From the IMG/VR virus record IMGVR_UViG_3300045988_047031, positions 1 through 61,038 of that record: 61,038 bases of DNA. One strand, given 5' to 3'. Position numbers and translations under genes: made by a program. The notes beneath the pieces were generated by a model. It ran no database searches, had not been told where the DNA came from, and worked only from the letters and a program-made list of their open reading frames with translations. Position 1 is the first letter of the stretch; every line of letters begins with the position of its first letter. Source of the stretch: a virus. This document shows, in pieces, positions 4,294-61,038 of the stretch.

Positions 4294-4321
4294 ATTACAA
4301 AGCTCTTAATAGAAGGAGAGA
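4294..4321 (+). promoter_or_regulatory. phage promoter-like element, copy a (attacaaagctcttaatagaaggagaga)
   Basis: fits TTTACA-N10-TAGAA(A/G)GAGAG with the same fixed spacing as the 12 other copies; lies 105 nt upstream of the SSB-like gene. Confidence 0.5.
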
Positions 4322-7153: not shown

Positions 7154-7361
7154 AGCTTGAATTGGTTGGATATTATAGGAAAAATTGGCTATTTTTGGTC
7201 GATTTTCATTCTACAATTGTCGTTTTCGGCTAATTTGCCCCTGACAAAAGTGGCTCAAAACCCTGGAATTTCCCCAAATTTCCCCAAATCAAACTTGGGG
7301 ATTTGCCAAAAAACGTGGGGAAAATGGGTGTTTTTGGGCCATTTCCCCAAATCAGGGGGTA

Positions 7362-7493
7362 TTTTGTGCCACGTTTTGAGCCACTTTTTTAGGCCTATTT
7401 TTGCTATAATGTTATAGTATTTTGGACTAGTTTTTGGCGTGATTTTTAGATGTTTTCAGACGTCGAAAAAGTGGCTCAAAACGTGGCACAAAA
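7362..7493. repeat. 28-bp perfect inverted repeat (arms 7362-7389 / 7466-7493)
   Basis: ttttgtgccacgttttgagccacttttt versus its exact reverse complement; the 76-bp spacer contains TGcTATAAT; partial third copy aaaagtggctcaaaac at 7246-7261. Confidence 0.95.
7402..7410 (+). promoter_or_regulatory. extended -10 box TGcTATAAT (candidate host sigma-A promoter)
   Basis: exact TGnTATAAT; part of the 22-nt direct repeat tatttttgctataatNttatag (7396-7417 and 7639-7660). Confidence 0.4.
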
Positions 7494-7644
7494 CTCTGGT
7501 AAGTTTGGGGAAATTGGTGTTTTCCCATGGTTTTCCCCAAGAAATTTCGCCAATCCCCAGATTAAAGTTGGGGAAAATGGTGAAGAGTTGTCAGGGGCAA
7601 ATTGAGCAAAAAGGGGTCTTTTTGGCCTGTTTTTGGGGTATTTT

Positions 7645-7653
7645 TGCTATAAT
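7645..7653 (+). promoter_or_regulatory. extended -10 box TGcTATAAT (candidate host sigma-A promoter)
   Basis: second copy of the 22-nt repeat. Confidence 0.4.
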
Positions 7654-7659
7654 TTTATA

Positions 7660-7911
7660 GTTTTCCCCAAAATCCCACGGTTTTTTCGGAAACTTTTTAA
7701 ATATATTAATTAGATTTTATATGACTTTTTATGGGTTATGTAGGGTTGTATGGTATTATGTTGTTTTATTATATATTTTATATTATTTTTAATAGTCTCG
7801 CGCGTACGGGAACTATAATCTTAAAAGTATAAAAAATGGTATAATAAACAAGGATTTTTAATCAATATATTTAAAAAGTTTCCGAAAAAACCGTGGGATT
7901 TTGGGGAAAAC
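7660..7911. repeat. 48-bp perfect inverted repeat (arms 7660-7707 / 7864-7911)
   Basis: gttttccccaaaatcccacggttttttcggaaactttttaaatatatt versus its exact reverse complement; 156-bp AT-rich spacer with a GC island (gtctcgcgcgtacggg). Confidence 0.95.
7847..7855 (+). promoter_or_regulatory. extended -10 box TGgTATAAT (candidate host sigma-A promoter)
   Basis: exact TGnTATAAT inside the spacer of the 48-bp inverted repeat. Confidence 0.35.
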
Positions 7912-8055
7912 CTATTTTTATATGGAAAATGGACATTTTTGATGATTTTTGTCTTGTTTTTCTGGTTTTGTGTTGTTTTAGTATAATTTAGGTAAAAATA
8001 CATATTTATTTTAGTATTCTGGTTGTATTTGGTATTTTCCAATGTTGCCGGATGT

Positions 8056-8495
8056 GAAACGATATATAAGCTTCAAACTGCTTAGGTTTGGGTTGAGTGT
8101 GAGTTAAGTTTTTACTTGTTTGGGTAAGCGTCATAACATAGGCATTGTTAAACCTCCTTACAAATGTTTCCTTTCTGAATTATTTACTCATATTCAAAAG
8201 TTGCAGTTTCTGTCATTTCCTGCAACAACCTCAAAAGTGTTCCTACTGGGTTTTCTTATTTTTCCCCAGTTGTTTATAAATCTCCTATTTCTATTTTTTG
8301 GTTAGGCATGTGGTACTAGCAGCAAACTACATGTTCGTGATAAAAGTGTGTTTCATAAACATGACGTAAATGGGTGGTGTGGTTGATGTTCCGATGTGTC
8401 CATACTACAGCCAATTTATCCAATCAAGTGTTGGTGAAGTTTGTACTTTCTCGCATATACCAAACCTAGGTGGTTTCAAGCTTATATATCATTTC
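8056..8495. repeat. 36-bp imperfect inverted repeat (arms 8056-8091 / 8460-8495, 31/36)
   Basis: gaaacgatatataagcttcaaactgcttaggtttgg versus ccaaacctaggtggtttcaagcttatatatcatttc. Confidence 0.8.
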
Positions 8496-8715
8496 GGTAT
8501 GTATTTTTATAGTTTTTATGGGTATTTCTCAGTTTTGGGAAGTTCGAGGCGCTATAATAGCCCTCAGAGGCCCATATTCGCCCTGTATCGCGTTTTATGT
8601 TGTAGTCCGGTAAATAGTTCATCTTTGGGCTAAAATGCTGTGATGGGCCTTATATGGCCTTATACGACGTGTTAGTATTTTGGGCATTTTTAAGATTTTT
8701 GAGGAGGATTACGCA

Positions 8716-11637
8716 TTGGATTTCGGAAATGTCTTCGGAAATGAAGAGGAAATCATGAATGATTTGAGCCAACTTTCGGATACCGGACGAGAAATTATCC
8801 TCAAACATATTGGGGTAAAACGGCGTTCCGGACGTTATCCTTGGGATCCATTTTTACATTTACCCAAGAATTATAAGTTCATCGAAGACCGTGATGAGCT
8901 TAAAAAACGGGGTCTAAGCGACAACGAAATCGCTAAAGAAATGGGTCTTTCAACAACAGTTTATCGTTCAAAAGTAACAATTGCCAAGGAAGAATTGAAA
9001 CAATATAACATGCAACGGATTGCAAAATTACAGTCTGAAGGTATGATTATTGACGATATTGCCAAGACAATTGGGACTACTGGACAGACTGTTCGTAACT
9101 ATTTGGAGGAAATTAAGAACCCAAATAAGAGTGCTCGGGCTAAAAGAGTGCAGACTGAAGCAGTCGCACAAACACTCGAAGACGCTGTAAAACGGTCAAA
9201 ATACATCGATGTTGGTAAGGGTGTGGAGATTCAGATGGGTATTTCCAAGGAAAAACTTAAGTCTGGACTCAATGCTTTGGTCGAATCTGGTGAATATGAG
9301 GTGCATAATCTACGTATTGCGCAGGTTACAGACAAGAATAATTCGACTCCAGTCAAGGTTTTGACGAAAAAAGGGGTAGAAAGAGCTGAAATCTATAAGA
9401 ATATGGATAAAGTTCGCCCTGTCGAAGAGTTTGCAATAAACGGCGATGCCCGTATGTTCCAACAAATGGAGCGCCCTAAGTCGATTGGATGGGATAGAGT
9501 GCATATTCGGTACGCAATTCCTGAAGGACAGAAGGGTCACGGGACAAATGACGATGGCGCAATGATGGACGGAGCCATGTTCTTACGTCCTGGTGTTAAA
9601 GATTTAAATCTTGGTAAAGCATCATATGCCCAAGTTCGTATTGCTGTAGGTGATACCCATTACCTTAAGGGTATGGCTTTATATGGTACCGAGGAAATGT
9701 TTAAAGGTATCCCTAAAGGTACCGATATTATCTTTAATACCAATAAGACAGCCAATAAGACGCCTCAGGAAGTCCTTAAAGAGCTTAAGAAGAACCCTGA
9801 AGGTGGGGCCCCTATCGAAGGCCCGAACCCGTTTGGAGCCACTGTAAAGCGCCAGAATACGCTTGTAGACAGTAACGGAAATCCTGTTTATAAACCTGGA
9901 GTTAAAGACCGGTTTGGAAATAAGGTTCCTCAAATTGGTTCTATCAATATCGTAAATGAGGAAGGCGATTGGGGTAGTTGGTCTAAAGCCTTATCTGCAC
10001 AGTTCCTTTCTAAACAACCTACGACTGTTGTGCATGAGCGATTGAAAGCAACTATGAAGCAGGTACAAGATGAGTATGAAAGTATTCAGAAAGTTACGAA
10101 TCCTGTTATCAAGAAACAATTGATGGAATCGTTTGTGTCTGACCTGGAATCTAAGCAGGTTCATATGAAAGCCGCAGCACCAAAAGGTTTCCAAGGACAT
10201 GTTATCTTACCGGTTCCTGATATGAAGGAGAATGAAGTATATGCTCCTAATTATAAGAATGGTGAGAAGGTTGTCCTTATCCGATATCCTCATGGTGGAC
10301 GATTTGAAATCCCTGAGCTGACTGTAAATAATAATAGTGTAGCTCGTAAGATGATATCTAAGGATAGCCCTGATGCTATTGGTATTCATCCGAAGGTTGC
10401 ATCTAAAATGTCTGGTGCCGACTTTGATGGGGATACTGCATATGTTATTCCAAATAATAAAGGGAAGTTTAAGAGTCGAGATAGTCTTAAAGAACTTAAG
10501 AACTTCGACCCTAACATGTATGCGGATAAGCCTGGTACATTTACACCAATTACTAAACGTTATCAACAAACTTTGATGGGTGTTGTATCAAACCTTATTA
10601 CTGATATGACATTACAAGGCGCCCCATCTAGTGAGATCGCGCGTGCTGTAAAACACTCAATGGTTGTTATTGATGCTGAGAAACATAAGCTTAATTATAG
10701 GCGCTCTGCTGAAGAGAATGGTATCGATGCATTAATGAAACGGTATATGACCCACGTTGATAGAGTTAACTATGGTGAGCTCGAGCGATATAATCCTAAG
10801 ACAAGACGGGTAGATAAAGTAATCGACCCTGAGAAATTAAAAAAGGATTTGACGCCGGGTAAAGAATATACCTCCGCCTCTACAATTATATCCCGCCATA
10901 AACAATCCGTTATTACTGACGGGTATCAAGTAGAAGTGCCCGATCCTAAATCTAAGTCGGGTGGTACTAAGATGGTATGGCGTAACAAGAAGGAAACTTA
11001 TCTTGTTAATATGGTTAAGGATGCCAATGTGTTCCTTGGCCCTAACGCAACCAAGACGGAGCATCATTATGCGGACTACATCAATGAACTCAAGGCCTTT
11101 AAGAATAAGGTCGACTCAGAAATGAGTGGTATCAAGATGCCGTCCCGTGATCCTAAAGCCGCTAAGATCTATGCAGAGGAAGTCCTGTCTATGAAGGACA
11201 AGGTCAACCAAGTAAAGATTAACCGTATCAAAGAACGCCAAGCGCAACGTATGGCTGAGGTATCAAGTAAAGCAGAGATTGCTCGTAGGTCAGAGGATGA
11301 AGTTCTGAAGAAGGATGAGATCTCTCGTATCAAACAACAAGCTTTGAACAAAGCAAGGTCTATGGTAGGTGCAGAAAGAACGCCCGTCACTATTACAGAT
11401 GACGAGTGGGATGCAGTACAATCTAATGCGGTATCGGGTACTCTACTGAAAGAACTGGTATCCTTTATGGATGATAGCCAGCTCAAGTCCCTTGCTACCC
11501 CAAGAGCTAACAAACAGATGACCGAAGCTCGTAAGAGTAAAGCTAAGGCCCTGCTTGCTAATGGCTATACAATAGCACAAGTAGCAGAAGCATTAGGTGT
11601 AAGTAGTTCTACTATTGGTAAGATCAAAGCTGAATAG
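8716..11637 (+). CDS. single-polypeptide two-barrel RNA polymerase candidate (YonO / RdRP-like) with HTH modules
   Basis: VVLIRYPHGG...IGIHPKVASKMSGADFDGDTAYVIP (DFDGD = nt 10420-10434) parallels the beta-prime NADFDGD barrel. Upstream YAQVRIAVGDTHYLKGMAL resembles the first barrel of RdRP/YonO-type enzymes. HTH-like segments lie near the N terminus (EIAKEMGLSTTVYRS, DIAKTIGTTGQTVRNYL) and the C terminus (IAQVAEALGVSSSTIGKI). Start uncertain: TTG 8680 (ORF track), TTG 8716 (GAGGAGGA RBS) or ATG 8755. Confidence 0.7.
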   Translation: MDFGNVFGNEEEIMNDLSQLSDTGREIILKHIGVKRRSGRYPWDPFLHLPKNYKFIEDRDELKKRGLSDNEIAKEMGLSTTVYRSKVTIAKEELKQYNMQRIAKLQSEGMIIDDIAKTIGTTGQTVRNYLEEIKNPNKSARAKRVQTEAVAQTLEDAVKRSKYIDVGKGVEIQMGISKEKLKSGLNALVESGEYEVHNLRIAQVTDKNNSTPVKVLTKKGVERAEIYKNMDKVRPVEEFAINGDARMFQQMERPKSIGWDRVHIRYAIPEGQKGHGTNDDGAMMDGAMFLRPGVKDLNLGKASYAQVRIAVGDTHYLKGMALYGTEEMFKGIPKGTDIIFNTNKTANKTPQEVLKELKKNPEGGAPIEGPNPFGATVKRQNTLVDSNGNPVYKPGVKDRFGNKVPQIGSINIVNEEGDWGSWSKALSAQFLSKQPTTVVHERLKATMKQVQDEYESIQKVTNPVIKKQLMESFVSDLESKQVHMKAAAPKGFQGHVILPVPDMKENEVYAPNYKNGEKVVLIRYPHGGRFEIPELTVNNNSVARKMISKDSPDAIGIHPKVASKMSGADFDGDTAYVIPNNKGKFKSRDSLKELKNFDPNMYADKPGTFTPITKRYQQTLMGVVSNLITDMTLQGAPSSEIARAVKHSMVVIDAEKHKLNYRRSAEENGIDALMKRYMTHVDRVNYGELERYNPKTRRVDKVIDPEKLKKDLTPGKEYTSASTIISRHKQSVITDGYQVEVPDPKSKSGGTKMVWRNKKETYLVNMVKDANVFLGPNATKTEHHYADYINELKAFKNKVDSEMSGIKMPSRDPKAAKIYAEEVLSMKDKVNQVKINRIKERQAQRMAEVSSKAEIARRSEDEVLKKDEISRIKQQALNKARSMVGAERTPVTITDDEWDAVQSNAVSGTLLKELVSFMDDSQLKSLATPRANKQMTEARKSKAKALLANGYTIAQVAEALGVSSSTIGKIKAE

Positions 11638-11719: not shown

Positions 11720-12001
11720 ATGCTAACAACTGAAGACAATCCGTTCAGTCCTTGGACACAGTACGAGTTATGGCGACGTTGGGACATCGATCATGGTTAC
11801 AACATCGAGTCTTACATCGCATCACTCATGCCAATGCTCAATGACAGTTCAATTGAAGACTATGAACACGCATGGTCGGTAGCAGTGTCTTCGATACTAG
11901 AACAGAACATCTTCGGAAACTTAAAACTTGTTCCAAAACCTGATGATTACGAAGAAGATCTTGAGTTTCTTAATGAAGATGAAGATGAAATAAAACTTTA
12001 G
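11720..12001 (+). CDS. small highly acidic protein (93 aa)
   Basis: AAAGGAGAG RBS; D/E-rich C terminus (DDYEEDLEFLNEDEDE). Confidence 0.65.
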   Translation: MLTTEDNPFSPWTQYELWRRWDIDHGYNIESYIASLMPMLNDSSIEDYEHAWSVAVSSILEQNIFGNLKLVPKPDDYEEDLEFLNEDEDEIKL

Positions 12002-12257
12002 ACCCCGGGGGGGTGCCTATTACAGGCCTTCCTCTTCAGCATCGGGGCTGGTATCAAAAATTCCCCCGTTGCGATTTTTTTCAAAATGGTTTTGGATTTC
12101 TACAGGCCGATTCTAGGATTGGTTTGTGCTAGAGGGGTACTTTGCTCCTTTCAACCCCTATAGTATATAGCGGGCGTTAGACAGGACTGATGGTCGTTGT
12201 TGAAAACTGACCTAAAGTCGGTCTATAGGAGTCCAAAACTTATGAAAAAGGGTTCTA
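12002..12257. other. non-coding region upstream of the packaging genes (candidate cos/pac region)
   Basis: 256 nt without an ORF; ccccggggggg tract at about 12004-12014; repeated tacaggcc (about 12020 and 12100); sits just before the HNH-TerL module. Confidence 0.35.
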
Positions 12258-35122: not shown

Positions 35123-36277
35123 ATGGTTGTTGTATCTAGTGGTCAGATCACGATCACCGACGTAGAAGATGGGAAACCAGGGCGTGATGGCCAGGTCGGT
35201 GAAAACTTGCTCTTAGACACTAACGCTATGTCTGTATCTAAGAACTACGCAAATCAAGACCGATATTATTCGCATTCAGAAAACCATGCATTATTTGATT
35301 TCGGGTATGTTCAAATCCAAGACCCTCCAGTTGCTTCTATTTCTACTGGTGTCCGGTTTAAAAATAAAGAAGGTTCTTCCGGTAAGAATATCGGGATCTG
35401 CTGGTATGGCGGAGATTATAAAGGTGTTCCACTCAAAGCTGGAACAAAGTATACAATTTCGTGCTATGCGAGGAAGATTAGCGGTGCGTCAACTGCTAAG
35501 ATGTACATTTACCCAATGCTTAAGGATTGGTCTATCTATGGTAATTTCTTAACGGATTATATTACAACTAATGAATGGGTACAGTTATCTAAGACCTTCG
35601 AATTTGACCCTACTAAAATGGGCGATAACGACCCTAAAGCAGCCCGTATCTACTTCACGGTTCTTGCGACAAATACTGAGTTATTTGAGGTTCAGGTGTG
35701 TGGTTTCAAGCTTGAAGAAGGCGAAGTCGCTACACCATACAAACCTAGTCCAGTTGAGACAACTATCGAACTTGGACGTAAGGCCGACTCAGAGTCTGTA
35801 TTAGAACAGCAACGTCTTCTTAAAGAAGCTCAGGATCAAGCACTAAAATCCCTAAATGATGATATTATGCGAAGAGTGTCTACAGACTGGGCGGATTTAA
35901 TTAAACGTATTCGTGATACAGATGAGGCTGGTAGAAAAGCGGCTGAGGAGTCTTTGCGTGTAATGTCTGCTCGTTTAAGGTCTGAGGTATCTAAGCAGTT
36001 CGGTGAGTATGCCTATATTCGGGAATTCATAACCACTCAGGTCGTTGAGAGTGAAGAAGGGCTCTCTATCGGTAAGCAGGACAATAGTGAACGGTTGGTA
36101 TTTACTCCAAACCGTATTTCGTTTATGTCTGCCGGTAAGGAAATTGCCTCAATCGCTCAAGGGCGACTGAACATCGACTCCGGTGCGTTCACCTTAAGCT
36201 TACAAATCGGTCACTTTATTACATTCCAGGATCCGTCTGATCCTACACGGAATATTACAAAATATATAGAAGGGTAG
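35123..36277 (+). CDS. tail fibre / baseplate protein with carbohydrate-binding-like domain
   Basis: N-terminal SGQITITDVEDGKPGRDGQ motif typical of tail fibre joints; coiled-coil C-terminal half. Confidence 0.5.
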   Translation: MVVVSSGQITITDVEDGKPGRDGQVGENLLLDTNAMSVSKNYANQDRYYSHSENHALFDFGYVQIQDPPVASISTGVRFKNKEGSSGKNIGICWYGGDYKGVPLKAGTKYTISCYARKISGASTAKMYIYPMLKDWSIYGNFLTDYITTNEWVQLSKTFEFDPTKMGDNDPKAARIYFTVLATNTELFEVQVCGFKLEEGEVATPYKPSPVETTIELGRKADSESVLEQQRLLKEAQDQALKSLNDDIMRRVSTDWADLIKRIRDTDEAGRKAAEESLRVMSARLRSEVSKQFGEYAYIREFITTQVVESEEGLSIGKQDNSERLVFTPNRISFMSAGKEIASIAQGRLNIDSGAFTLSLQIGHFITFQDPSDPTRNITKYIEG

Positions 36278-40950: not shown

Positions 40951-40996
40951 GCGTTGTGTGAGTGAAATCTACAACGCTTATTTTTTTTTATTTTTT
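40951..40996 (+). terminator. intrinsic terminator after the lysis cassette
   Basis: gcgttgt-13 nt-acaacgc followed by a long T tract. Confidence 0.6.
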
Positions 40997-41021
40997 ACAG
41001 CTCTCTATATAGAAAGAGAGG
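40994..41021 (+). promoter_or_regulatory. phage promoter-like element, copy b (tttacagctctctatatagaaagagagg)
   Basis: consensus copy; ATG 41030 is 8 nt after GAGAGG. Confidence 0.6.
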
Positions 41022-42974: not shown

Positions 42975-43002
42975 TTTACAACCCTCCTAATAGAAAGAGA
43001 GG
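42975..43002 (+). promoter_or_regulatory. phage promoter-like element, copy f (tttacaaccctcctaatagaaagagagg)
   Basis: same geometry; ATG 43011 is 8 nt downstream. Confidence 0.55.
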
Positions 43003-50007: not shown

Positions 50008-50220
50008 ATGGAAAAGGAGTATATTGAAGTAACATATTCCTTTACCGGTGATGATTATGTTAAGGAAGTCATCCCTGCTGAGCAGTACAAGGCATTCAAG
50101 GAAGCATTTCTTAACAATGGCGTATTTATATTTGAGTACGACCGTAAATCACCAACTCATCGCTCAGGCTTGAATATGAAAATGATTGATATGTCCAAGG
50201 TTGTTTGGATAGGATATTAG
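50008..50220 (+). CDS. hypothetical protein (70 aa)
   Basis: ORF between two well-supported genes. Confidence 0.6.
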   Translation: MEKEYIEVTYSFTGDDYVKEVIPAEQYKAFKEAFLNNGVFIFEYDRKSPTHRSGLNMKMIDMSKVVWIGY

Positions 50221-50231
50221 AGGAGTATTAT

Positions 50232-53200
50232 ATGACGGACAGAAAACCGGATTTCTTCAATATTACAGTTGAGGAATTATCTGGCCCAAATCGTAAAGCC
50301 GATGCCGTTATTTCCGCTGATTTCACATATCTAGATAACCAAGGAGGAGACGTTAAGGATATTGTTGTAAAAGGTGGTAGCTTTTATGCTATGTGGACTG
50401 GAGAGAACTGGTCAATGGAAAAGAACGATGTTGTTCGTGTTGTTGACCAATATATCTCACACAAGTTCCACGAGCTTAAAGCGCAAGGTTATGAACGAGT
50501 ATCTGTTAAATTTATGCAAAACGCAGGCTCAGGTCTTATGCGTAATTTCGTCAAGTATTGTGAAGACGCACCCGAGTCCATGCAGGTATTTAATAGTAAA
50601 ATCTTATTCCAAAACCACAACGTTGTCAGAGAAGATTATTCTACTTTCCAACTACCTTATACACCAACTCCTCAACCAACTCCTGCATTTGACGAGCTTT
50701 CTTCTGTCTTATATGCGCCAGACCAACTCGATAAAATCTTGTGGTGTTTGGGTGCCTTATTTACAGGAGAGATTGTTAATATTGAGAAATTCTTATTCTT
50801 ATATGGCCCAGCGGGAACCGGTAAAGGAACAATAATTAAAATCATCGAGATGCTGCTTGGGCAATATATCGGTGGTATCGACTTGAAACAACTTACGAGC
50901 GGTTCCGAGTATGCAACAGGGACTCTACAAGAGCTACCTTTGTTGATTGACTCGGATACAGACTTGAGTCGTATTAAGAACGATACCCCATTGCTTAAGG
51001 TTACATCTCATGAAGAAGTATTTGTACGTAAGTTATATCAAAGACCATATCCCGTGACGTTTAAAGGTCTTATCATCACTGCATCAAACCAACGTGCACA
51101 ATTCCGTGATTCAGACTCTGGTATTGTCAGACGTCTACTTAAGGCGGTACCAACAGGTCATCTTATCGCTGGCCCAAGGTATAAAGAACTGATGAATAAC
51201 ATCCAGTTTGAGTTAGCTGGAATTGCACAAAAATCTATTGATGTATTTTCTCGTCTAGGAGCATTCCATTACGCCAACGACGTCGATATTGAGATGCTTG
51301 AATACGGAGACTCTATATTTGAGTTTGTCCGTGAGAATGTGTTGATGATGAAAGACGACCCAACCTTATCTGAAGTAGAACTACTCTATAAGGCTATGCT
51401 CGAAGATAGGGGCTGGGAGACTAACGGATATAAGAACCGTCTGCGACTAGGCTTACAGCGATTTTTCGAAACATATACCAAAGACACTAAAGATAGCGAA
51501 GGAAATCGAAAACGTGATTGGTATAGAGGTTTCAAATACGAAGAGGCATTTCCTGAAACAAAAGCTAAACCTGTTAGTGAGGATAAACCTAAGATTGACT
51601 TGACAATGGGTCGAGAAACATCTAGGTTTGATATTGAGGGTCGTGATTGGCCTGCTCAATATACTAACAAGGACGGGAACCCTCTGAAGAAGTGGGACTC
51701 GGTAACAACGACGTTAAAAGATATCGACCCCACTCAATTACACTTTGTCCGTGTTCCAACCGAACATATTATAATTGACTTCGATGCTAAGAACGAGAAC
51801 GGCGAGAAAGACCTTGCTAAGAACCTCGAACTGGCATCCGGATATCCTCCAACTTATACAGAAGTATCTAAGTCTGGTGGTGGCGTCCATCTACATTATT
51901 GGTATGATGGCGACCCTACTAAGCTAGCTACACGTATTTCTGACGACATTGAAATTAAGGTGTTTAATGGCGGGGCTTCCTTGCGTAGAAAACTCATATC
52001 TGCCAACGACCTACCAGTTGCTCATATTTCAAGCGGTCTACCACTCAAGGAGGAGAAGAAGTCAATGTATAAAGATGTTGAACACATTATGTGGACAGAG
52101 AAAAAACTTCTTGATTTCATTGACGCATGTCTCCGAAAAGAACACCATGGGGCAACGGCGCCTGAAGTATCATTTATAGCAAAGGTACTAGATGATGCAT
52201 ATGAAGCTGGTGTTATTTATGATTTGCGACATAAACAACAAGAAGTATTACGGTTTGCACTCAAGTCAACCAACCAAGCGCAACAATGTTTGAAGATGGT
52301 TTCTGAGATGCATTTCCATAGAGTTCCTGATGATGAGAACGAATCTTATTCTGAAGGCCTCATTCTACCTGATGAAGATATCGTATTCTTTGACTCGGAA
52401 GTATTCTGCAACCTGTATATGTTAGGTTGGAAGAAATACGGTTTGGACGTCCCCGAATCAATCTACAAAGGTCTCGAAGATTGTACTACTCTAACTGAGA
52501 TTGAGACCATCTTGGTTAATGAGTGGTGGGCAACACACGAGAAAGAAATCGGTATTGAAATCAACCCTACACCTAAACGCGTATGTCATTTATTTGACAC
52601 ATATCCTATGGTCGGCTTCAACAACCTTGGATATGATAACCATATTGCTTATGGTCGTATGCAGGGTGATGATGAAATGGAATGTTATAAACGTTCTCAA
52701 GGCATTATCGAGAAGCGTGATAAACGTGCTAAAATCTGGGCGGCTAACGATATCTCATATGCGGATATCTACGAGTTCCTAGACACTAAGATGTCATTGA
52801 AGAAATGGCAGATTAAACTAGGGCTCCGCCACGATGAGTTCGAATATGACTGGACTAAACCTCTCCCTGAGCATGCATGGGGTCGTTGTGCGGCATATAT
52901 GCTTAACGACGTAACTTCAGAGGAAGAACTGTTCAAATCTAAAGACGGACAAGATGCATGGGCCGCTCGTAAAGTCTTGGCTGAAATCAACGGTCTTTCA
53001 CCTAATGTTAAGACTCAGACGCAAGCTGAGAAATTCTTATTTGGAGATGACCCGAACCCTCAAGATAAGTTCAACTGGTATGATTTGTCTAAGGAATTCC
53101 CAGGTTATACATTTGATAAATTCAAGAAGAAATCTGAATATCTTGGAGAAGACCCATCTGAAGGTGGTTATGTCCATGCCGAACCTGGTGTATATAAGAA

Positions 53201-54350
53201 CGTTATCGTATTGGATATCGCGTCTATGCATCCACACAGCCTGATTGCCATGAATTACTTTGGCCCGTATACACCGAAGTTTGCGGCCCTGGTTAAATGT
53301 CGTATGGCGATTAAGCACGGTAAGATTGATGAAGCATCTCATGCCTTTGATGAGGTAGACCCTGAACTAGCAGATAAACTCCGTCCATATTTGGAAGGTG
53401 GTTCTGTCAAAGGTTTGGCTCATGCGCTTAAGATTATCATAAATATTGTATATGGTATGACTTCCGCACCATGGCCTAATAAATTTAAAGACCCTCGTAA
53501 TGTCGATAACTGTATCGCAAAACGTGGAGCTTTATTTATGATTATGCTGAAGAAGGAAGTTCAAGAACGCGGCTATCAAGTAGCACATATTAAGACGGAC
53601 TCAATTAAGATTATCAACGGCGATCAATCTATTATTGACTACTGTATGAAACGTGCGAATGATTTCAAATACGAGTTCGAACACGAGCATACATATTCCC
53701 GTATGGCCTTACTCAACCGCGCTACCGTTATTGCCGAAATCGGTTGGCCTGAAAAAGAGAAAGGTAATTGGGAAGCGATTGGTGCTCAATTCGGTAAGAA
53801 GACCAATCCGTATGTTTACAAGACTCTGTTAAGTCAAGAAGAAGTAAACGAGAAAGATTTCTTTATTACTAAGGAAGTTAAGACCGCTATTTATCTTGAC
53901 GACCAATATGTTGGTAAGAACGCTCAAATCTACGCTTCTCTCACAGGTCGTGAAATCTCTAGAACTCAACCCAGCAATGTAGCTCAGATGATTCAATCGA
54001 GATGGATTAAACCGAACTATATGCTTAAACGCGAGTCTGCAGGTCTAGACGCATTCCAACTTGAAGAAGCTAAGAAACATAAGATTGCCAATGAACTAGG
54101 CATCGATATCTATGAAGTTAAACAAATTATCGATAACGGGTTCCCTGATACTATTGTCGACAAGAATGTATCTGTAACAGGTACTTCTGGGTATAAGTGG
54201 GAACTAGCTACTCGATATAAAGGCTTCGAAGATATTGATATGACATATTACCATACTCTAGTTAAGGACGCTGTTAAAGACGTCTATGCTGTTGGTGATG
54301 GTGATATTATTTTCGGCGGAACTAAATTTGCCAAATATGCAAAGGAGTAA
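50232..54350 (+). CDS. fusion replicase: SF3 helicase/NTPase - AEP primase-polymerase - family B DNA polymerase
   Basis: Walker A GPAGTGKGT (nt 50805-), Walker B LLIDSD, motif C ITASN. AEP DxD IIIDFDAK plus SGGGVHLHY. PolB ExoI FFDSE, ExoII NLGYD, ExoIII YMLND, motif A LDIASMHPHS, motif B KIIINIVYG, motif C IKTDS. AGAGGAG RBS before ATG 50232. Confidence 0.8.
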   Translation: MTDRKPDFFNITVEELSGPNRKADAVISADFTYLDNQGGDVKDIVVKGGSFYAMWTGENWSMEKNDVVRVVDQYISHKFHELKAQGYERVSVKFMQNAGSGLMRNFVKYCEDAPESMQVFNSKILFQNHNVVREDYSTFQLPYTPTPQPTPAFDELSSVLYAPDQLDKILWCLGALFTGEIVNIEKFLFLYGPAGTGKGTIIKIIEMLLGQYIGGIDLKQLTSGSEYATGTLQELPLLIDSDTDLSRIKNDTPLLKVTSHEEVFVRKLYQRPYPVTFKGLIITASNQRAQFRDSDSGIVRRLLKAVPTGHLIAGPRYKELMNNIQFELAGIAQKSIDVFSRLGAFHYANDVDIEMLEYGDSIFEFVRENVLMMKDDPTLSEVELLYKAMLEDRGWETNGYKNRLRLGLQRFFETYTKDTKDSEGNRKRDWYRGFKYEEAFPETKAKPVSEDKPKIDLTMGRETSRFDIEGRDWPAQYTNKDGNPLKKWDSVTTTLKDIDPTQLHFVRVPTEHIIIDFDAKNENGEKDLAKNLELASGYPPTYTEVSKSGGGVHLHYWYDGDPTKLATRISDDIEIKVFNGGASLRRKLISANDLPVAHISSGLPLKEEKKSMYKDVEHIMWTEKKLLDFIDACLRKEHHGATAPEVSFIAKVLDDAYEAGVIYDLRHKQQEVLRFALKSTNQAQQCLKMVSEMHFHRVPDDENESYSEGLILPDEDIVFFDSEVFCNLYMLGWKKYGLDVPESIYKGLEDCTTLTEIETILVNEWWATHEKEIGIEINPTPKRVCHLFDTYPMVGFNNLGYDNHIAYGRMQGDDEMECYKRSQGIIEKRDKRAKIWAANDISYADIYEFLDTKMSLKKWQIKLGLRHDEFEYDWTKPLPEHAWGRCAAYMLNDVTSEEELFKSKDGQDAWAARKVLAEINGLSPNVKTQTQAEKFLFGDDPNPQDKFNWYDLSKEFPGYTFDKFKKKSEYLGEDPSEGGYVHAEPGVYKNVIVLDIASMHPHSLIAMNYFGPYTPKFAALVKCRMAIKHGKIDEASHAFDEVDPELADKLRPYLEGGSVKGLAHALKIIINIVYGMTSAPWPNKFKDPRNVDNCIAKRGALFMIMLKKEVQERGYQVAHIKTDSIKIINGDQSIIDYCMKRANDFKYEFEHEHTYSRMALLNRATVIAEIGWPEKEKGNWEAIGAQFGKKTNPYVYKTLLSQEEVNEKDFFITKEVKTAIYLDDQYVGKNAQIYASLTGREISRTQPSNVAQMIQSRWIKPNYMLKRESAGLDAFQLEEAKKHKIANELGIDIYEVKQIIDNGFPDTIVDKNVSVTGTSGYKWELATRYKGFEDIDMTYYHTLVKDAVKDVYAVGDGDIIFGGTKFAKYAKE

Positions 54351-55934: not shown

Positions 55935-57365
55935 ATGAAAAAACAAACTACACTTAAAATTGCTGCCATGGGTATCGCTCTCTTTGGTTCTGCTGTTGTT
56001 ACGGAGTCTGCATTTGCTGATGTGACAAAAGCCGAAGGGTCTACCGAACTTATTGCTACCGATCCTGCGGTGACTATCAGTAAAAATGAAGAGGACTCCA
56101 TTTGGTCGGATGTCAACGTAAACATCAAGACCGATATTCCTGATGAAGTTCCTATTAACGAAGGCGATAAGATGACTTTCAATATCCCAGAGGAGCTTAA
56201 TCTCGAAACCAGCTACGATTTCCCTGTATATAATGAAACAGGAGAAACTGAAGTTGGTACTGCTGATGTCAAGGCTAATGAACGTACTGTAACTACAACG
56301 TTCAATAATTATTTTACCGAGCATCCGCTGGATAAATCTATCAGCTTGAATTTTACCACTAAGATCAACCGTGAAGTTATGCAGGAAAACACCAAGCGTA
56401 ATGTTTCATTCAATGGTACTATTGTGGAAATCAACGCAGGTTCTAAAGGTACAATCAACCCTAATGAGGAATTGTACAAATACGGTTACCAAGACCGTGA
56501 CGATAAAGATCTTATCCACTGGGTTGCTCGTTTGAATTACAAGCGCCAAACAATGGAAGATGTAAACATCTCTGATACATGGTCTGATGATCAAGACTAT
56601 GTTGAGGGTAGCCTTATTTACAGCTACGTTAAAGATGTGGATCCATGGGTATATGACTCACCTGCTACTCAAGCTCGGGCGAATACTAAATTCAACAAGA
56701 ACGGTTTTACCACACACATCGATAAGATTGAAAACAAAATCTTGATGGTTGAGTATAAGACACGCTTGCGTACACCAGTTCTTTATAACCCAACTAACTT
56801 ATTCACAGCTAGCTGGAACGGAGGGTTTGTATCACACGAAGCTGAAACTAAACTTTATGATGGTAATGGTAAAGCAACTGGTAAATCCCGTCCAAAATGG
56901 GACAAACCAAATGATGCGCCTAAGTATGAGCTTCCTGAGTTTGAAGGAGGCGTTGTTCCTAACGATCCTCCAGTTTACAAAAACCCATCTATTGACTTAG
57001 CCGATATCCCATTGATGCCACCAGCGCCTACATTGGATTTGCCAGAATGGAAAGGCGGAACTGTACCATTTGACGCTCCTAAACACGACAAACCAGAATT
57101 CAACGGTGGTGTTATTCCTAATGATGCACCTATCGTAGACCTTCCAGAGTTGGTTATTCCTGAAATGCCAGCTCCTAAGGAAGATAAACCTAAAGTTGAA
57201 ATCAAAGAAAAACCAGTTAAACCAGCTAAGCAACAACCTCTTGGCCGACCTACCTTACCAGCAACAGGTAGTGATGAAACTACATATCTTGCCATTGGCG
57301 GTGTTGTAATTGGTGTACTCGCATTGGGCATGGCTGGAATGAAAAAGAAAGATGAGGAAAAATAA
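55935..57365 (+). CDS. LPXTG-anchored surface adhesin (collagen-binding/MSCRAMM-like A domain plus proline-rich repeats)
   Basis: signal peptide MKKQTTLKIAAMGIALFGSAVVTESAFA; GDKMTFNIPEELNLETSYDFPVYN...VTTTFNNYF resembles the Collagen_bind domain core; three PE(F/W)xGG(V/T)(V/I)P(N/F)D(A/P)P repeats; LPATG plus TM plus KKKDEEK. Confidence 0.8.
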   Translation: MKKQTTLKIAAMGIALFGSAVVTESAFADVTKAEGSTELIATDPAVTISKNEEDSIWSDVNVNIKTDIPDEVPINEGDKMTFNIPEELNLETSYDFPVYNETGETEVGTADVKANERTVTTTFNNYFTEHPLDKSISLNFTTKINREVMQENTKRNVSFNGTIVEINAGSKGTINPNEELYKYGYQDRDDKDLIHWVARLNYKRQTMEDVNISDTWSDDQDYVEGSLIYSYVKDVDPWVYDSPATQARANTKFNKNGFTTHIDKIENKILMVEYKTRLRTPVLYNPTNLFTASWNGGFVSHEAETKLYDGNGKATGKSRPKWDKPNDAPKYELPEFEGGVVPNDPPVYKNPSIDLADIPLMPPAPTLDLPEWKGGTVPFDAPKHDKPEFNGGVIPNDAPIVDLPELVIPEMPAPKEDKPKVEIKEKPVKPAKQQPLGRPTLPATGSDETTYLAIGGVVIGVLALGMAGMKKKDEEK

Positions 57366-58181: not shown

Positions 58182-58487
58182 ATGCTTGAAAATGGTCTAG
58201 ATATTGTCCGGGCTTTATCTCAAGTCAGACCTCCTGGACGACCTCGCAAATATGTTAGCGATGAAGATATTATCCTATATAAAGAGGCAGGCTGGTCAAA
58301 TCGAACCATTGCGGTCTCTATGGGTATATCTCGCGCAACAATCAATCGCCGGGTGAACGACTTAATCGAGCAAGGTAAGATAAAGCCTGAGGACTACAAA
58401 TACAATTTCAATAACCCTAGTGCCGCTGCTCAACCTAGACGTACTGATAAGGAGCGATGGGAGTATTGGCATGGGCCTGGAGTATAA
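58182..58487 (+). CDS. helix-turn-helix DNA-binding protein (Hin/sigma region 4-like)
   Basis: PPGRPRKY ... AGWSNRTIAVSMGISRATINRRVNDL. Confidence 0.65.
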   Translation: MLENGLDIVRALSQVRPPGRPRKYVSDEDIILYKEAGWSNRTIAVSMGISRATINRRVNDLIEQGKIKPEDYKYNFNNPSAAAQPRRTDKERWEYWHGPGV

Positions 58488-58491
58488 AAAA

Positions 58492-58519
58492 AATACATGC
58501 CTCATAATAGAAAGAGAGG
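58492..58519 (+). promoter_or_regulatory. phage promoter-like element, copy k (aatacatgcctcataatagaaagagagg)
   Basis: same geometry; ATG 58529 is 9 nt downstream. Confidence 0.5.
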
Positions 58520-60234: not shown

Positions 60235-60262
60235 TTTACACGTGTCTATATAGAAAGAGAGG
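60235..60262 (+). promoter_or_regulatory. phage promoter-like element, copy m (tttacacgtgtctatatagaaagagagg)
   Basis: consensus copy; ATG 60271 is 8 nt downstream. Confidence 0.6.
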
Positions 60263-60983: not shown

Positions 60984-61038
60984 AACACACCATACCGCTT
61001 CTTAAGAGTTTTTCGTGAGAACAAGTATGGCGAGATTA
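60984..61038. repeat. terminal direct repeat, copy 2
   Basis: identical to nt 1-55. Confidence 0.95.

Follow-up and report, generated by a model that had tools for sequence, protein, structure and literature searches.

The gene at positions 8716 to 11637 of a viral DNA record raises the question of whether one polypeptide could serve a phage both as its RNA polymerase and as the factor that finds its promoters. The DNA analysed here, called the window below, is the whole 61,038-nucleotide (nt) stretch of IMG/VR record IMGVR_UViG_3300045988_047031 (positions 1 to 61,038). An initial annotation, made from the letters alone, had proposed that this gene encodes a single-polypeptide, two-barrel RNA polymerase with helix-turn-helix (HTH) modules at both ends. 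Fold searches with two AlphaFold models bore out the polymerase proposal, and the best explanation overall, which we consider probable, is that the protein is a single-chain, two-barrel, DNA-dependent phage transcriptase that is made early and uses promoters of a TTTACA-CTATA type. No living model comes closer to the ancestor of all cellular RNA polymerases than the single-chain two-barrel enzymes. Few of them have been studied (YonO, QDE-1, crAss gp66 and P23-45 gp64/gp96), and the way in which they find promoters is largely open, as the authors of the YonO study stated for their own enzyme (PMC5467207).

Reading frame, predicted fold and catalytic residues

The coding sequence and the elements of its catalytic core are given below in amino acids (aa) and nt.

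8716..11637, + strand: RNA polymerase-like protein coding sequence, 973 aa from TTG 8716
8701..8707, + strand: ribosome-binding site GAGGAGG, 8 nt 5' of TTG 8716, read from the sequence
9463..10815, + strand: two-barrel catalytic core, aa 250-700 of the 973-aa form (core model and Foldseek search against PDB)
9622..9687, + strand: beta-subunit-like barrel motif Y-A-Q-V-R...K-G-M-A, SYAQVRIAVGDTHYLKGMALYG, aa 315-336 of the 985-aa form
10267..10326, + strand: beta-prime-like barrel motif R-Y-P-H-G-G, KVVLIRYPHGGRFEIPELTV, aa 530-549 of the 985-aa form
10420..10434, + strand: predicted metal-binding catalytic loop DFDGD (sequence, alignment and a weak Pfam match to RNA-dependent RNA polymerase, RdRP)

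The sole long + strand open reading frame (ORF) ending at 11637 spans 8680..11637 and amounts to 985 aa when counted from its first TTG. Alternative in-frame starts are TTG 8680 (985 aa) and ATG 8755 (960 aa), and among the three candidates only TTG 8716 has a strong ribosome-binding site; the resulting 973-aa form is also the commonest gene call for near-identical database proteins. Residue numbers refer to this form, in which the aspartates of the DFDGD loop are D569, D571 and D573, corresponding to D581, D583 and D585 in the 985-aa form. All sequence strings quoted in the initial annotation were recovered in the ORF in their places, and DFDGD lies exactly at nt 10420-10434 (aa 581-585 in 985-aa numbering).

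Since sequence searches of PDB returned no polymerase, the fold was tested by structure prediction, using one model of the whole protein and one of the core alone (aa 250-700; m3819c3f99495). The full-length AlphaFold model has a predicted local distance difference test score (pLDDT) of 74.8 and a predicted template-modelling score (pTM) of 0.60, with the barrel region above 85-90 in pLDDT. When this model was compared with PDB by Foldseek, the best matches were QDE-1 (2e-7), P23-45 gp64 (1.5e-6) and then P74-26 gp62, all with probability 1.0, and the lower matches included crAss phi14:2 gp66, Rpb1, beta-prime and the AR9 enzyme. The core model matched P74-26 gp62 (4.3e-8), QDE-1 (1.2e-7, with QDE-1 from two fungi among the matches), P23-45 gp64 (1.8e-7) and RDR2 (1e-5), and all of its 50 listed PDB matches are two-barrel RNA polymerases. 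In BFVD, a library of viral structures, the matches were phage 'RdRP' proteins and again P23-45 gp64. The PDB matches of the two models are almost exclusively two-barrel RNA polymerases, which speaks against an unrelated fold, and these predicted structures support membership of the protein in the superfamily of single-chain two-barrel (double-psi beta-barrel) RNA polymerases.

The residues expected of such an enzyme are highly conserved. A beta-like first barrel had been suggested about 250 aa upstream of the catalytic loop; SYAQVRIAVGDTHYLKGMALYG was found 266 aa before DFDGD, and in the AlphaFold model the motif forms two strands (E304-311 and E315-323) with pLDDT above 90. DFDGD itself is the only D-x-DGD among all ORFs of at least 150 aa in the six frames of the window. 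In an alignment of 109 sequences with ~43% identity to the query, Y304-A305-Q306-V307-R308, K318-G319-M320-A321, R523, P525, H526 and D569-F-D-G-D573 are invariant. In a second set, made up of 150 cluster representatives (50% identity), every sequence has DxDGD (150/150), and R[YHF]PH occurs in 148/150 and YAQVR in 130/150. A decayed active site is unlikely because the catalytic residues are invariant across the alignment and the representatives, and this conservation argues that the core is neither decayed nor vestigial. It is known that an invariant R-x-P precedes the catalytic loop throughout the two-barrel superfamily (Rpb1 R446/P448; PMC2919709), and R523-Y-P525-H526 was placed as its equivalent by sequence order, not by superposition. 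R308, K318 and D285, which are invariant in the alignment, are candidates for the two basic residues and the Asp expected in the beta-like barrel (Rpb2 K979, K987 and D837).

DNA-binding modules and a conserved promoter-like element

Outside the core, the protein carries the following segments.

8806..8844, + strand: N-terminal peptide H-x-G-x4-S-G-R-Y-P-W (alignment and model)
8911..8970, + strand: first N-terminal HTH, GLSDNEIAKEMGLSTTVYRS (model helices H69-75 and H80-107)
9046..9111, + strand: second N-terminal HTH, IIDDIAKTIGTTGQTVRNYLEE (helices H112-119 and H123-134)
9202..9369, + strand: winged-helix-like module (helices, then a beta hairpin), aa ~163-218, between the HTHs and the core
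11563..11628, + strand: C-terminal HTH, GYTIAQVAEALGVSSSTIGKIK (Pfam profiles)

The three HTH segments proposed for the two ends of the protein coincide with helix-turn-helix elements of the model, and both the C-terminal and the second N-terminal HTH pass Pfam cut-offs. The C-terminal HTH, which is preceded by a long helical region on the C-terminal side of the core, matched HTH_7 (4e-10), HTH_23 (4.7e-9), HTH_3 (2.6e-8) and HTH_38 (8e-8). The second N-terminal HTH matched HTH_40 (28.5 bits against a cut-off of 27; aa 116-173) and phrog_3855 (E 1e-11), and the first showed weak profile matches only (SigZ region and Tn552 resolvase HTH). The description of these modules as sigma-region-4-like did not hold: Sigma70_r4_2 reached 24.0 bits, which is below its cut-off of 25.7, Sigma70_r4 gave E 0.016, and HTH_7, HTH_23, HTH_3 and HTH_38, which are resolvase and homeodomain-type profiles, outscore sigma region 4. 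Some homologues carry precomputed PF08281 or PF04545 matches. As judged from these profiles, the fused HTHs are generic and not specifically of the sigma-region-4 type. The module between the N-terminal HTHs and the core (H170-173, H178-190, E194-202 and E210-218 in the model) showed low-ranked fold matches to winged-helix transcription factors (TFE-alpha, Pol III subunits and MepR), which points to a winged-helix-like element. Promoter recognition may be the role of the fused HTHs.

Upstream of the HTHs lies an invariant peptide that the initial annotation did not mention. Columns H31, G33, S38, G39, R40, Y41, P42 and W43 do not vary among the 109 sequences, GRYPW is found in 84/150 cluster representatives, and the segment is predicted to be disordered (pLDDT below 50, aa 31-48). 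It looks like a short linear interaction motif, and a docking or packaging signal would be our guess.

A stand-alone 101-aa winged-HTH protein is encoded at 58182-58487 (Pfam HTH_24), and it falls in the same phrog_3855 as the second HTH of the polymerase. Similar small HTH proteins occur in related phages (BFVD match: Arthrobacter phage Qui), and the protein might act as a regulator that competes for the same DNA sites. A close paralogy between this protein (58182-58484) and the N terminus of the polymerase was considered and rejected, the similarity being that of generic HTHs only.

The candidate promoters of the window fall at the following positions.

40994..41014, + strand: first TTTACA-N5-CTATATAGAA site (motif search)
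41403, 41598, 41953, 43207, 45179, 45893, 55256 and 58773, + strand: further TTTACA-N5-CTATATAGAA sites
60235..60255, + strand: last TTTACA-N5-CTATATAGAA site (motif search)
42975..43002, + strand: variant site TTTACA-N6-CTAATAGAAAGAGAGG
~58492-58519 (just 3' of the winged-HTH gene) and 4294-4321, + strand: similar variant sites
7402, 7645 and 7837 (7402..7845), + strand: three host-type extended -10 promoters TGnTATAAT (direct pattern search)

In total, the window holds 10 sites of identical architecture and 3 variants, all on the + strand, which precede ~12 early-region genes, and the 12-mer TAGAAAGAGAGG occurs seven times, again on the + strand only. The TTTACA-N5-CTATATAGAA sites are positioned 5-30 nt 5' of a start ATG, often right after a hairpin and a T-run, and the structural module at 12-40 kb contains none of them except a shorter-spaced look-alike at 36254. 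The element is unlike a host promoter because the gap of 8 nt between TTTACA and TATAG misfits the -35/-10 spacing of sigma-70 and because CTATATAGAA in the window is without the -7 T of the -10 hexamer. True TGnTATAAT promoters are found in the same genome at 7402, 7645, 7837 and 43609, three of the four being 5' of the polymerase gene, and their presence alongside the TTTACA-CTATA element indicates two distinct promoter classes in the genome.

Unbiased k-mer counting recovered elements of the same architecture from five distant relatives, which are phages of Lactococcus, Streptomyces, Gordonia, Arthrobacter and Bifidobacterium. In the Lactococcus phage 1706 the element is CACA-N2-TTTTACA-N4-CTATAGTAGAAAGAAGG, with TTTTACA-N4-CTATAGTAGAAAG at 12-13 sites, and in Scap1, a genome of 61% G+C, it is TCGCAAG-TTTTACA-N4-CTATAGTGAGACCCC, also given with the ending CTATAGTGAGACC. 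The elements of the remaining three are TCGCGTAA-ATTACA-N4-CTATAATGAG in Correa, TCGCA-N3-ATTACA-N4-CTATAATGAGACC (also given with the ending CTATAATGAGACCCC) in Secretariat, and TCGCG-N4-AAACA-N3-CTTATAATGA in BitterVaud1. TTTACA-N4/5-CTATA(G/A/T) is accordingly present in six polymerase-bearing phages from six host genera and two phyla, and the actinophage versions carry an extra upstream TCGC(A/G) box. The relatives' sites lie on the coding strand in every case, and the majority are grouped where the early region begins. Counts of the strict pattern on the + and - strands were 20/1 in 1706, 10/1 in Correa and 8/0 in Secretariat, which is above all 200 shuffles, and no enrichment of this pattern was seen in SPbeta. 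When IMG/VR was scanned with TTTTACANNNNCTATAGT for co-occurrence of motif and polymerase, single chance matches were obtained among the matches listed. The element was not found reported in the literature searched, and its strand-specific form TTTACA-N5-CTATATAGAA and its recurrence in the five relatives are newly described here from sequence comparison.

The actinophage elements CTATAGTGAGACC (Scap1 24086 and similar sites) and CTATAATGAGACC (Secretariat) closely resemble the start region of T7 class III promoters, which is CTATAGGGAGACC. Since the fold of T7 RNA polymerase is unrelated, this likeness probably arose by convergence on a TATA segment for melting and a purine start after it.

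Family and genomic setting

A full-length match links the protein to PHROG 4291 ('RNA-dependent RNA polymerase'; E = 0, 1036.9 bits; aa 38-984 on profile positions 9-906 of 909). By tblastn, full-length homologues were found in 250 deposited phage genomes; the hosts or sources include Lactococcus, Streptomyces, Gordonia, Arthrobacter, Curtobacterium, Microbacterium, Rhodococcus, Bifidobacterium, Faecalibacterium and human oral samples. Identity is 48-51% to the 1706 group and 37-41% to the actinophage proteins, and an exhaustive search of 1.8 billion cluster representatives gave 694 clusters (50% identity) at E<=1e-30. A nucleotide search of deposited phages returned no match, the relatives being found at the protein level only. 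The lineage of the window is itself abundant, with thousands of 97-100% identical proteins on ~60-kb contigs in metagenome assemblies, and a 97%-identical protein comes from a metagenome-assembled genome of [Eubacterium] sulci; the lineage is probably of human oral origin and apparently uncultured.

The initial annotation had called the system largely undescribed, which overstates its novelty, as PHROG 4291, database labels and two papers already predict the family. The phage 1706 protein was listed among five distantly related 'YonO-like' families (Ruprich-Robert & Thuriaux 2010, PMC2919709), and Koert et al. 2021 (10.1101/842583) described the same protein family with DxDGD and HTHs at both termini, reported an HHpred probability of 95.7% to PF05183 for the family alignment and stated that the protein 'could potentially have RNA polymerase activity'. 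The protein is a new member of this previously predicted and annotated family. The comparison with YonO made in the annotation holds at the level of the superfamily, as seen in the fold, and fails at the level of sequence. BLASTP against YonO gave E 1.4 for the best relevant segment, which is not significant, and when the family profile was compared by hhalign with YonO and with an alignment of 35 YonO sequences, E was 0.019-0.19 with probability below 3%, although the non-significant hhalign alignment does line up R-x-P-H (LRSPH in YonO), D-x-DGD and G-x-x-S-N-x-I-T in order. Since the BLASTP, profile-sequence and profile-profile comparisons were all non-significant, the protein is not classed as a member of the YonO family in the strict sense.

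RefSeq and nr name the homologues 'RNA-dependent RNA polymerase', and across databases the labels vary from this name to 'HTH DNA-binding domain protein', 'structural protein', 'transcription factor D5' and 'transposase'. The annotations now in use do not agree with one another and probably mislead. Members are found in phages whose hosts are easy to grow (Lactococcus, Gordonia, Arthrobacter, Streptomyces and Bifidobacterium), and the combination of fused DNA-binding modules with a promoter-like motif that is conserved in two bacterial phyla makes a testable hypothesis. A compact 110-kDa enzyme with a ~21-bp promoter might also be developed into an orthogonal expression tool.

The first and last 55 nt of the window are identical (1-55 = 60984-61038), which means that the contig is a circularly closed assembly, and the G-rich cos-like sequence at ~12003-12020 (gaccccgggggggtgcc) probably marks the physical end of the genome. 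All genes share a single coding strand. Genes for a single-strand annealing protein, a helicase, an endonuclease and an exonuclease are arranged in this order at 4.4-7.15 kb, and after the exonuclease gene come 1.5 kb free of ORFs, then the polymerase gene, a 93-aa ORF and the cos-like site. The stretch from there to ~41 kb holds HNH, terminase, portal, protease-capsid, tail and lysis genes, and beyond it there are small early-type genes, with the DNA polymerase/primase located at 50.2-54.3 kb. When ~40 other ORFs were scanned against PHROG and Pfam, no other RNA polymerase subunit or sigma factor was revealed, in agreement with what had been noticed initially, and the only ORFs big enough for a T7-type enzyme are the tape measure, the DNA polymerase/primase, the protease-capsid fusion and the tail proteins. 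A second polymerase inside the 2,435-aa tape measure, as in P23-45, was considered and rejected, there being no D-x-DGD in it.

The three extended -10 promoters lie 0.8-1.3 kb 5' of the polymerase gene with no intervening ORF; a sigma-70 scan of 6.5-13.7 kb, which missed these extended -10 sites, gave fewer promoter-like sites than shuffles. They fall within the ORF-free region (7157-8680), which is immediately 5' of the polymerase gene and highly structured. It contains a 53-nt inverted repeat of 98% complementarity (7660-7712 / 7859-7911), a perfect 28-nt inverted repeat (7362-7389 / 7466-7493), a 36-nt inverted repeat (8056-8091 / 8460-8495) and many TTTCCCCAAA / TTTGGGGAAA repeats. An Rfam scan of the whole window, this region included, gave no match. 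Scap1, Secretariat and Correa are without such a region because their exonuclease gene abuts the polymerase gene. The region could serve as a regulatory leader or an origin, or hold genes for non-coding RNAs.

Towards the right genome end of 1706, Scap1, Secretariat and Correa, no large gene comes after the polymerase gene, and a small ORF follows it.

11720..12001, + strand: 93-aa ORF (phrog_4303), directly 3' of the polymerase gene in all the relatives examined (1706, Scap1, Secretariat, Correa and D_HF5_2C)

The product of this ORF has an acidic tail, a conserved N-terminal motif ML(T/S)T-x-DNP-x-x-P...W...D...Y and no Pfam match, and it could be a cofactor or partner of the polymerase or an anti-host factor. 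At 50205-54350 a 1,381-aa primase-polymerase fusion (phrog_4210) is encoded, which is syntenic with the DNA polymerase of 1706, Scap1, Correa and Secretariat; this fusion and the RNA polymerase gene together mark the phage supercluster. A 476-aa protein encoded at 55935-57365 combines a Big_8 bacterial Ig domain, a collagen-binding domain and an LPXTG cell-wall anchor, and this adhesin-like cargo with its anchor implies a Gram-positive host. A tandem 11-nt unit, ACGATATTATT, is repeated in 3-4 copies at ~1975-2012, in the intergenic stretch before a 400-aa ORF at 2146.

Proposed mechanism, alternatives and known systems

We suggest that host RNA polymerase would fire from the three extended -10 promoters at 7.4-7.9 kb and so make the phage enzyme, which would then recognise its own ~21-bp promoters, TTTACA-N5-CTATATAGAA, and serve about a dozen short transcription units in the early region. 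The fused HTH modules would read the upstream TTTACA, together with the TCGCA box in actinophages, and the polymerase core would melt the CTATA segment. Studied phage enzymes give this proposal its background: YonO is DNA-dependent and is the phage's own transcriptase (PMC5467207), and P23-45 gp64/gp96 are DNA-dependent and were proposed to initiate at phage-specific promoter motifs (PMC10770324). The analysis shows the fold, the conservation of the catalytic residues, the HTH modules and a motif family that is conserved in relatives; we infer a DNA-templated activity, a reading of the motif by this protein, the part played by the HTHs, and an early timing. A further and more tentative proposal is that the polymerase is self-sufficient and sigma-independent, finding double-stranded promoters through its fused HTH-HTH-winged helix and C-terminal HTH and reading a bipartite ~25-bp (TCGCA)-N3-TTTACA-N4/5-CTATA element conserved from Firmicutes to Actinobacteria phages. 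If this is true, polymerase and initiation factor would be fused in one polypeptide, in phages of culturable hosts.

Here, we need to consider several observations that weigh against an early DNA-dependent transcriptase with its own promoters. On the side of the fold, the TM-scores are modest (0.29 for the full model and 0.37-0.45 for the core), the basic residues of the first barrel are candidate assignments, and a PDB search with the protein and with the 109-sequence profile gave HTH-type matches and no polymerase. The Pfam RdRP match to PF05183 stays below the gathering threshold (17.8 against 23.8 bits, E 1.5e-3) and covers aa 572-668 only, and the YonO profile comparison reached only E 0.19. 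As for the promoters, the element of three actinophages includes a TATAAT without mismatch, and since a -10 is often all that actinobacterial promoters need, host RNA polymerase could read the element there; the co-occurrence of motif and polymerase may also reflect the shared ancestry of the six phages and not function. In the literature searched, we found no biochemical or transcriptomic study of the family and no measurement of activity, template preference or promoter binding for any member. Finally, GenBank EU081845 labels the 1706 homologue 'structural protein', an unverified label which would fit a virion-delivered enzyme.

Such delivery, in which the polymerase would be made late, packaged and injected so as to transcribe the motif-bearing early genes at time zero, seems to us rather unlikely, and it has precedents in N4, crAss-like phages and P23-45 gp96. 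The 1706 record gives the same label to two small ORFs in non-structural regions, which suggests virion proteomics as its source. In addition, the polymerase gene shares its strand with the packaging and structural module and lies directly 5' of it, with only the small ORF and the cos-like site between them, the motif precedes early-type small genes that would need a polymerase immediately, and the invariant, disordered peptide at the N terminus could act as a signal for packaging or ejection. Against this, the three consensus extended -10 host promoters 5' of the gene should fire upon DNA entry, and P23-45 gp64, among the closest structural matches, is a non-virion enzyme (PMC10770324). We give less credence still to a late-gene transcriptase of the YonO type, which would transcribe the long structural operon from one or a few promoters near the left end while the motif would be read by host RNA polymerase or another factor. 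YonO does transcribe the late genes of SPbeta as a single operon (PMC5467207), the TATAAT held by the motif in the three actinophages is a perfect host -10, and motif-like sequences exist near the left end, where the window has CTATAGTATATAG at ~12158 and phage 1706 has TTTACA-N5-TTATAAA at nt 105. However, the motif of the window is a poor sigma-A -10 with a TTTACA spacing that misfits sigma-70, unmistakable host-type promoters stand elsewhere in the same genome, and the conserved upstream TTTACA and TCGCA boxes would have no role in a -10-only host promoter.

A role other than transcription of the phage genes appears very improbable. Under it, the protein would be an RNA-templated polymerase, a maker of primers or small RNAs (for origin priming or counter-defence) or a DNA-binding regulator with a vestigial core. 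The database name 'RNA-dependent RNA polymerase' and the RNA templates used by the top structural matches QDE-1 and RDR2 speak for the first of these, but 'RNA-dependent' was taken over from the name of the Pfam family and not from data, and the characterised phage enzymes of the two-barrel fold are DNA-dependent. A priming function would suit the repeat-rich, origin-like region just 5' of the gene in the window; however, the genome already encodes a primase-polymerase fusion, and relatives in which the exonuclease gene abuts the polymerase gene have no repeat-rich region. SEA-PHAGES annotators named the protein an HTH DNA-binding protein, and its invariant catalytic residues speak against a vestigial core. 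Taking both sides together, we continue to favour an early, DNA-dependent transcriptase acting at TTTACA-CTATA promoters.

Among known systems, the virion RNA polymerase gp66 of crAss-like phi14:2 (PDB 6VR4) is also phage-encoded and has the two-barrel fold in one chain, but the structural match is weak (E 0.013-0.027) and gp66 is a virion-packaged protein of 2,180 aa. QDE-1 and plant RDR2 (PDB 2J7N, 5FSW, 7EU0; PF05183) are top structural matches that share the one-chain order of barrel B, connector and barrel A, with the weak Pfam match lying around DFDGD, whereas they are eukaryotic, serve RNA silencing, where their templates are mainly RNA or single-stranded, and have no HTH modules. YonO of SPbeta (PMC5467207) is likewise a single-chain two-barrel phage RNA polymerase, of ~100 kDa. 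Its family, unlike the window protein, shows no HTH Pfam domains, and its gene is located mid-genome in a 134-kb temperate phage, in which it transcribes the late operon. P23-45 gp64 and P74-26 gp62 (PDB 8F72, 8F5M; PMC10770324) are among the best structural matches (E 4e-8 to 2e-6), being phage-encoded single chains with both barrels which are DNA-dependent and have a proposed short promoter motif of their own; they differ in showing ~12% identity and no detectable sequence homology, and gp64 is ~590 aa long, with no fused HTH modules in its entry. The closest relatives are those of the PHROG 4291 family ('HTH domain-containing putative RNA polymerase'), found in the actinophage supercluster, Lactococcus 1706 and Faecalibacterium FP_oengus. 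They share full-length collinear homology with the window protein, DxDGD and the barrel motifs, HTHs at both termini, and the gene order of exonuclease, polymerase, small ORF and genome end. Compared with these relatives, the window gene is preceded by a 1.5-kb ORF-free structured region with host-type promoters, and its phage, of ~61 kb, is abundant, apparently uncultured and probably human oral.

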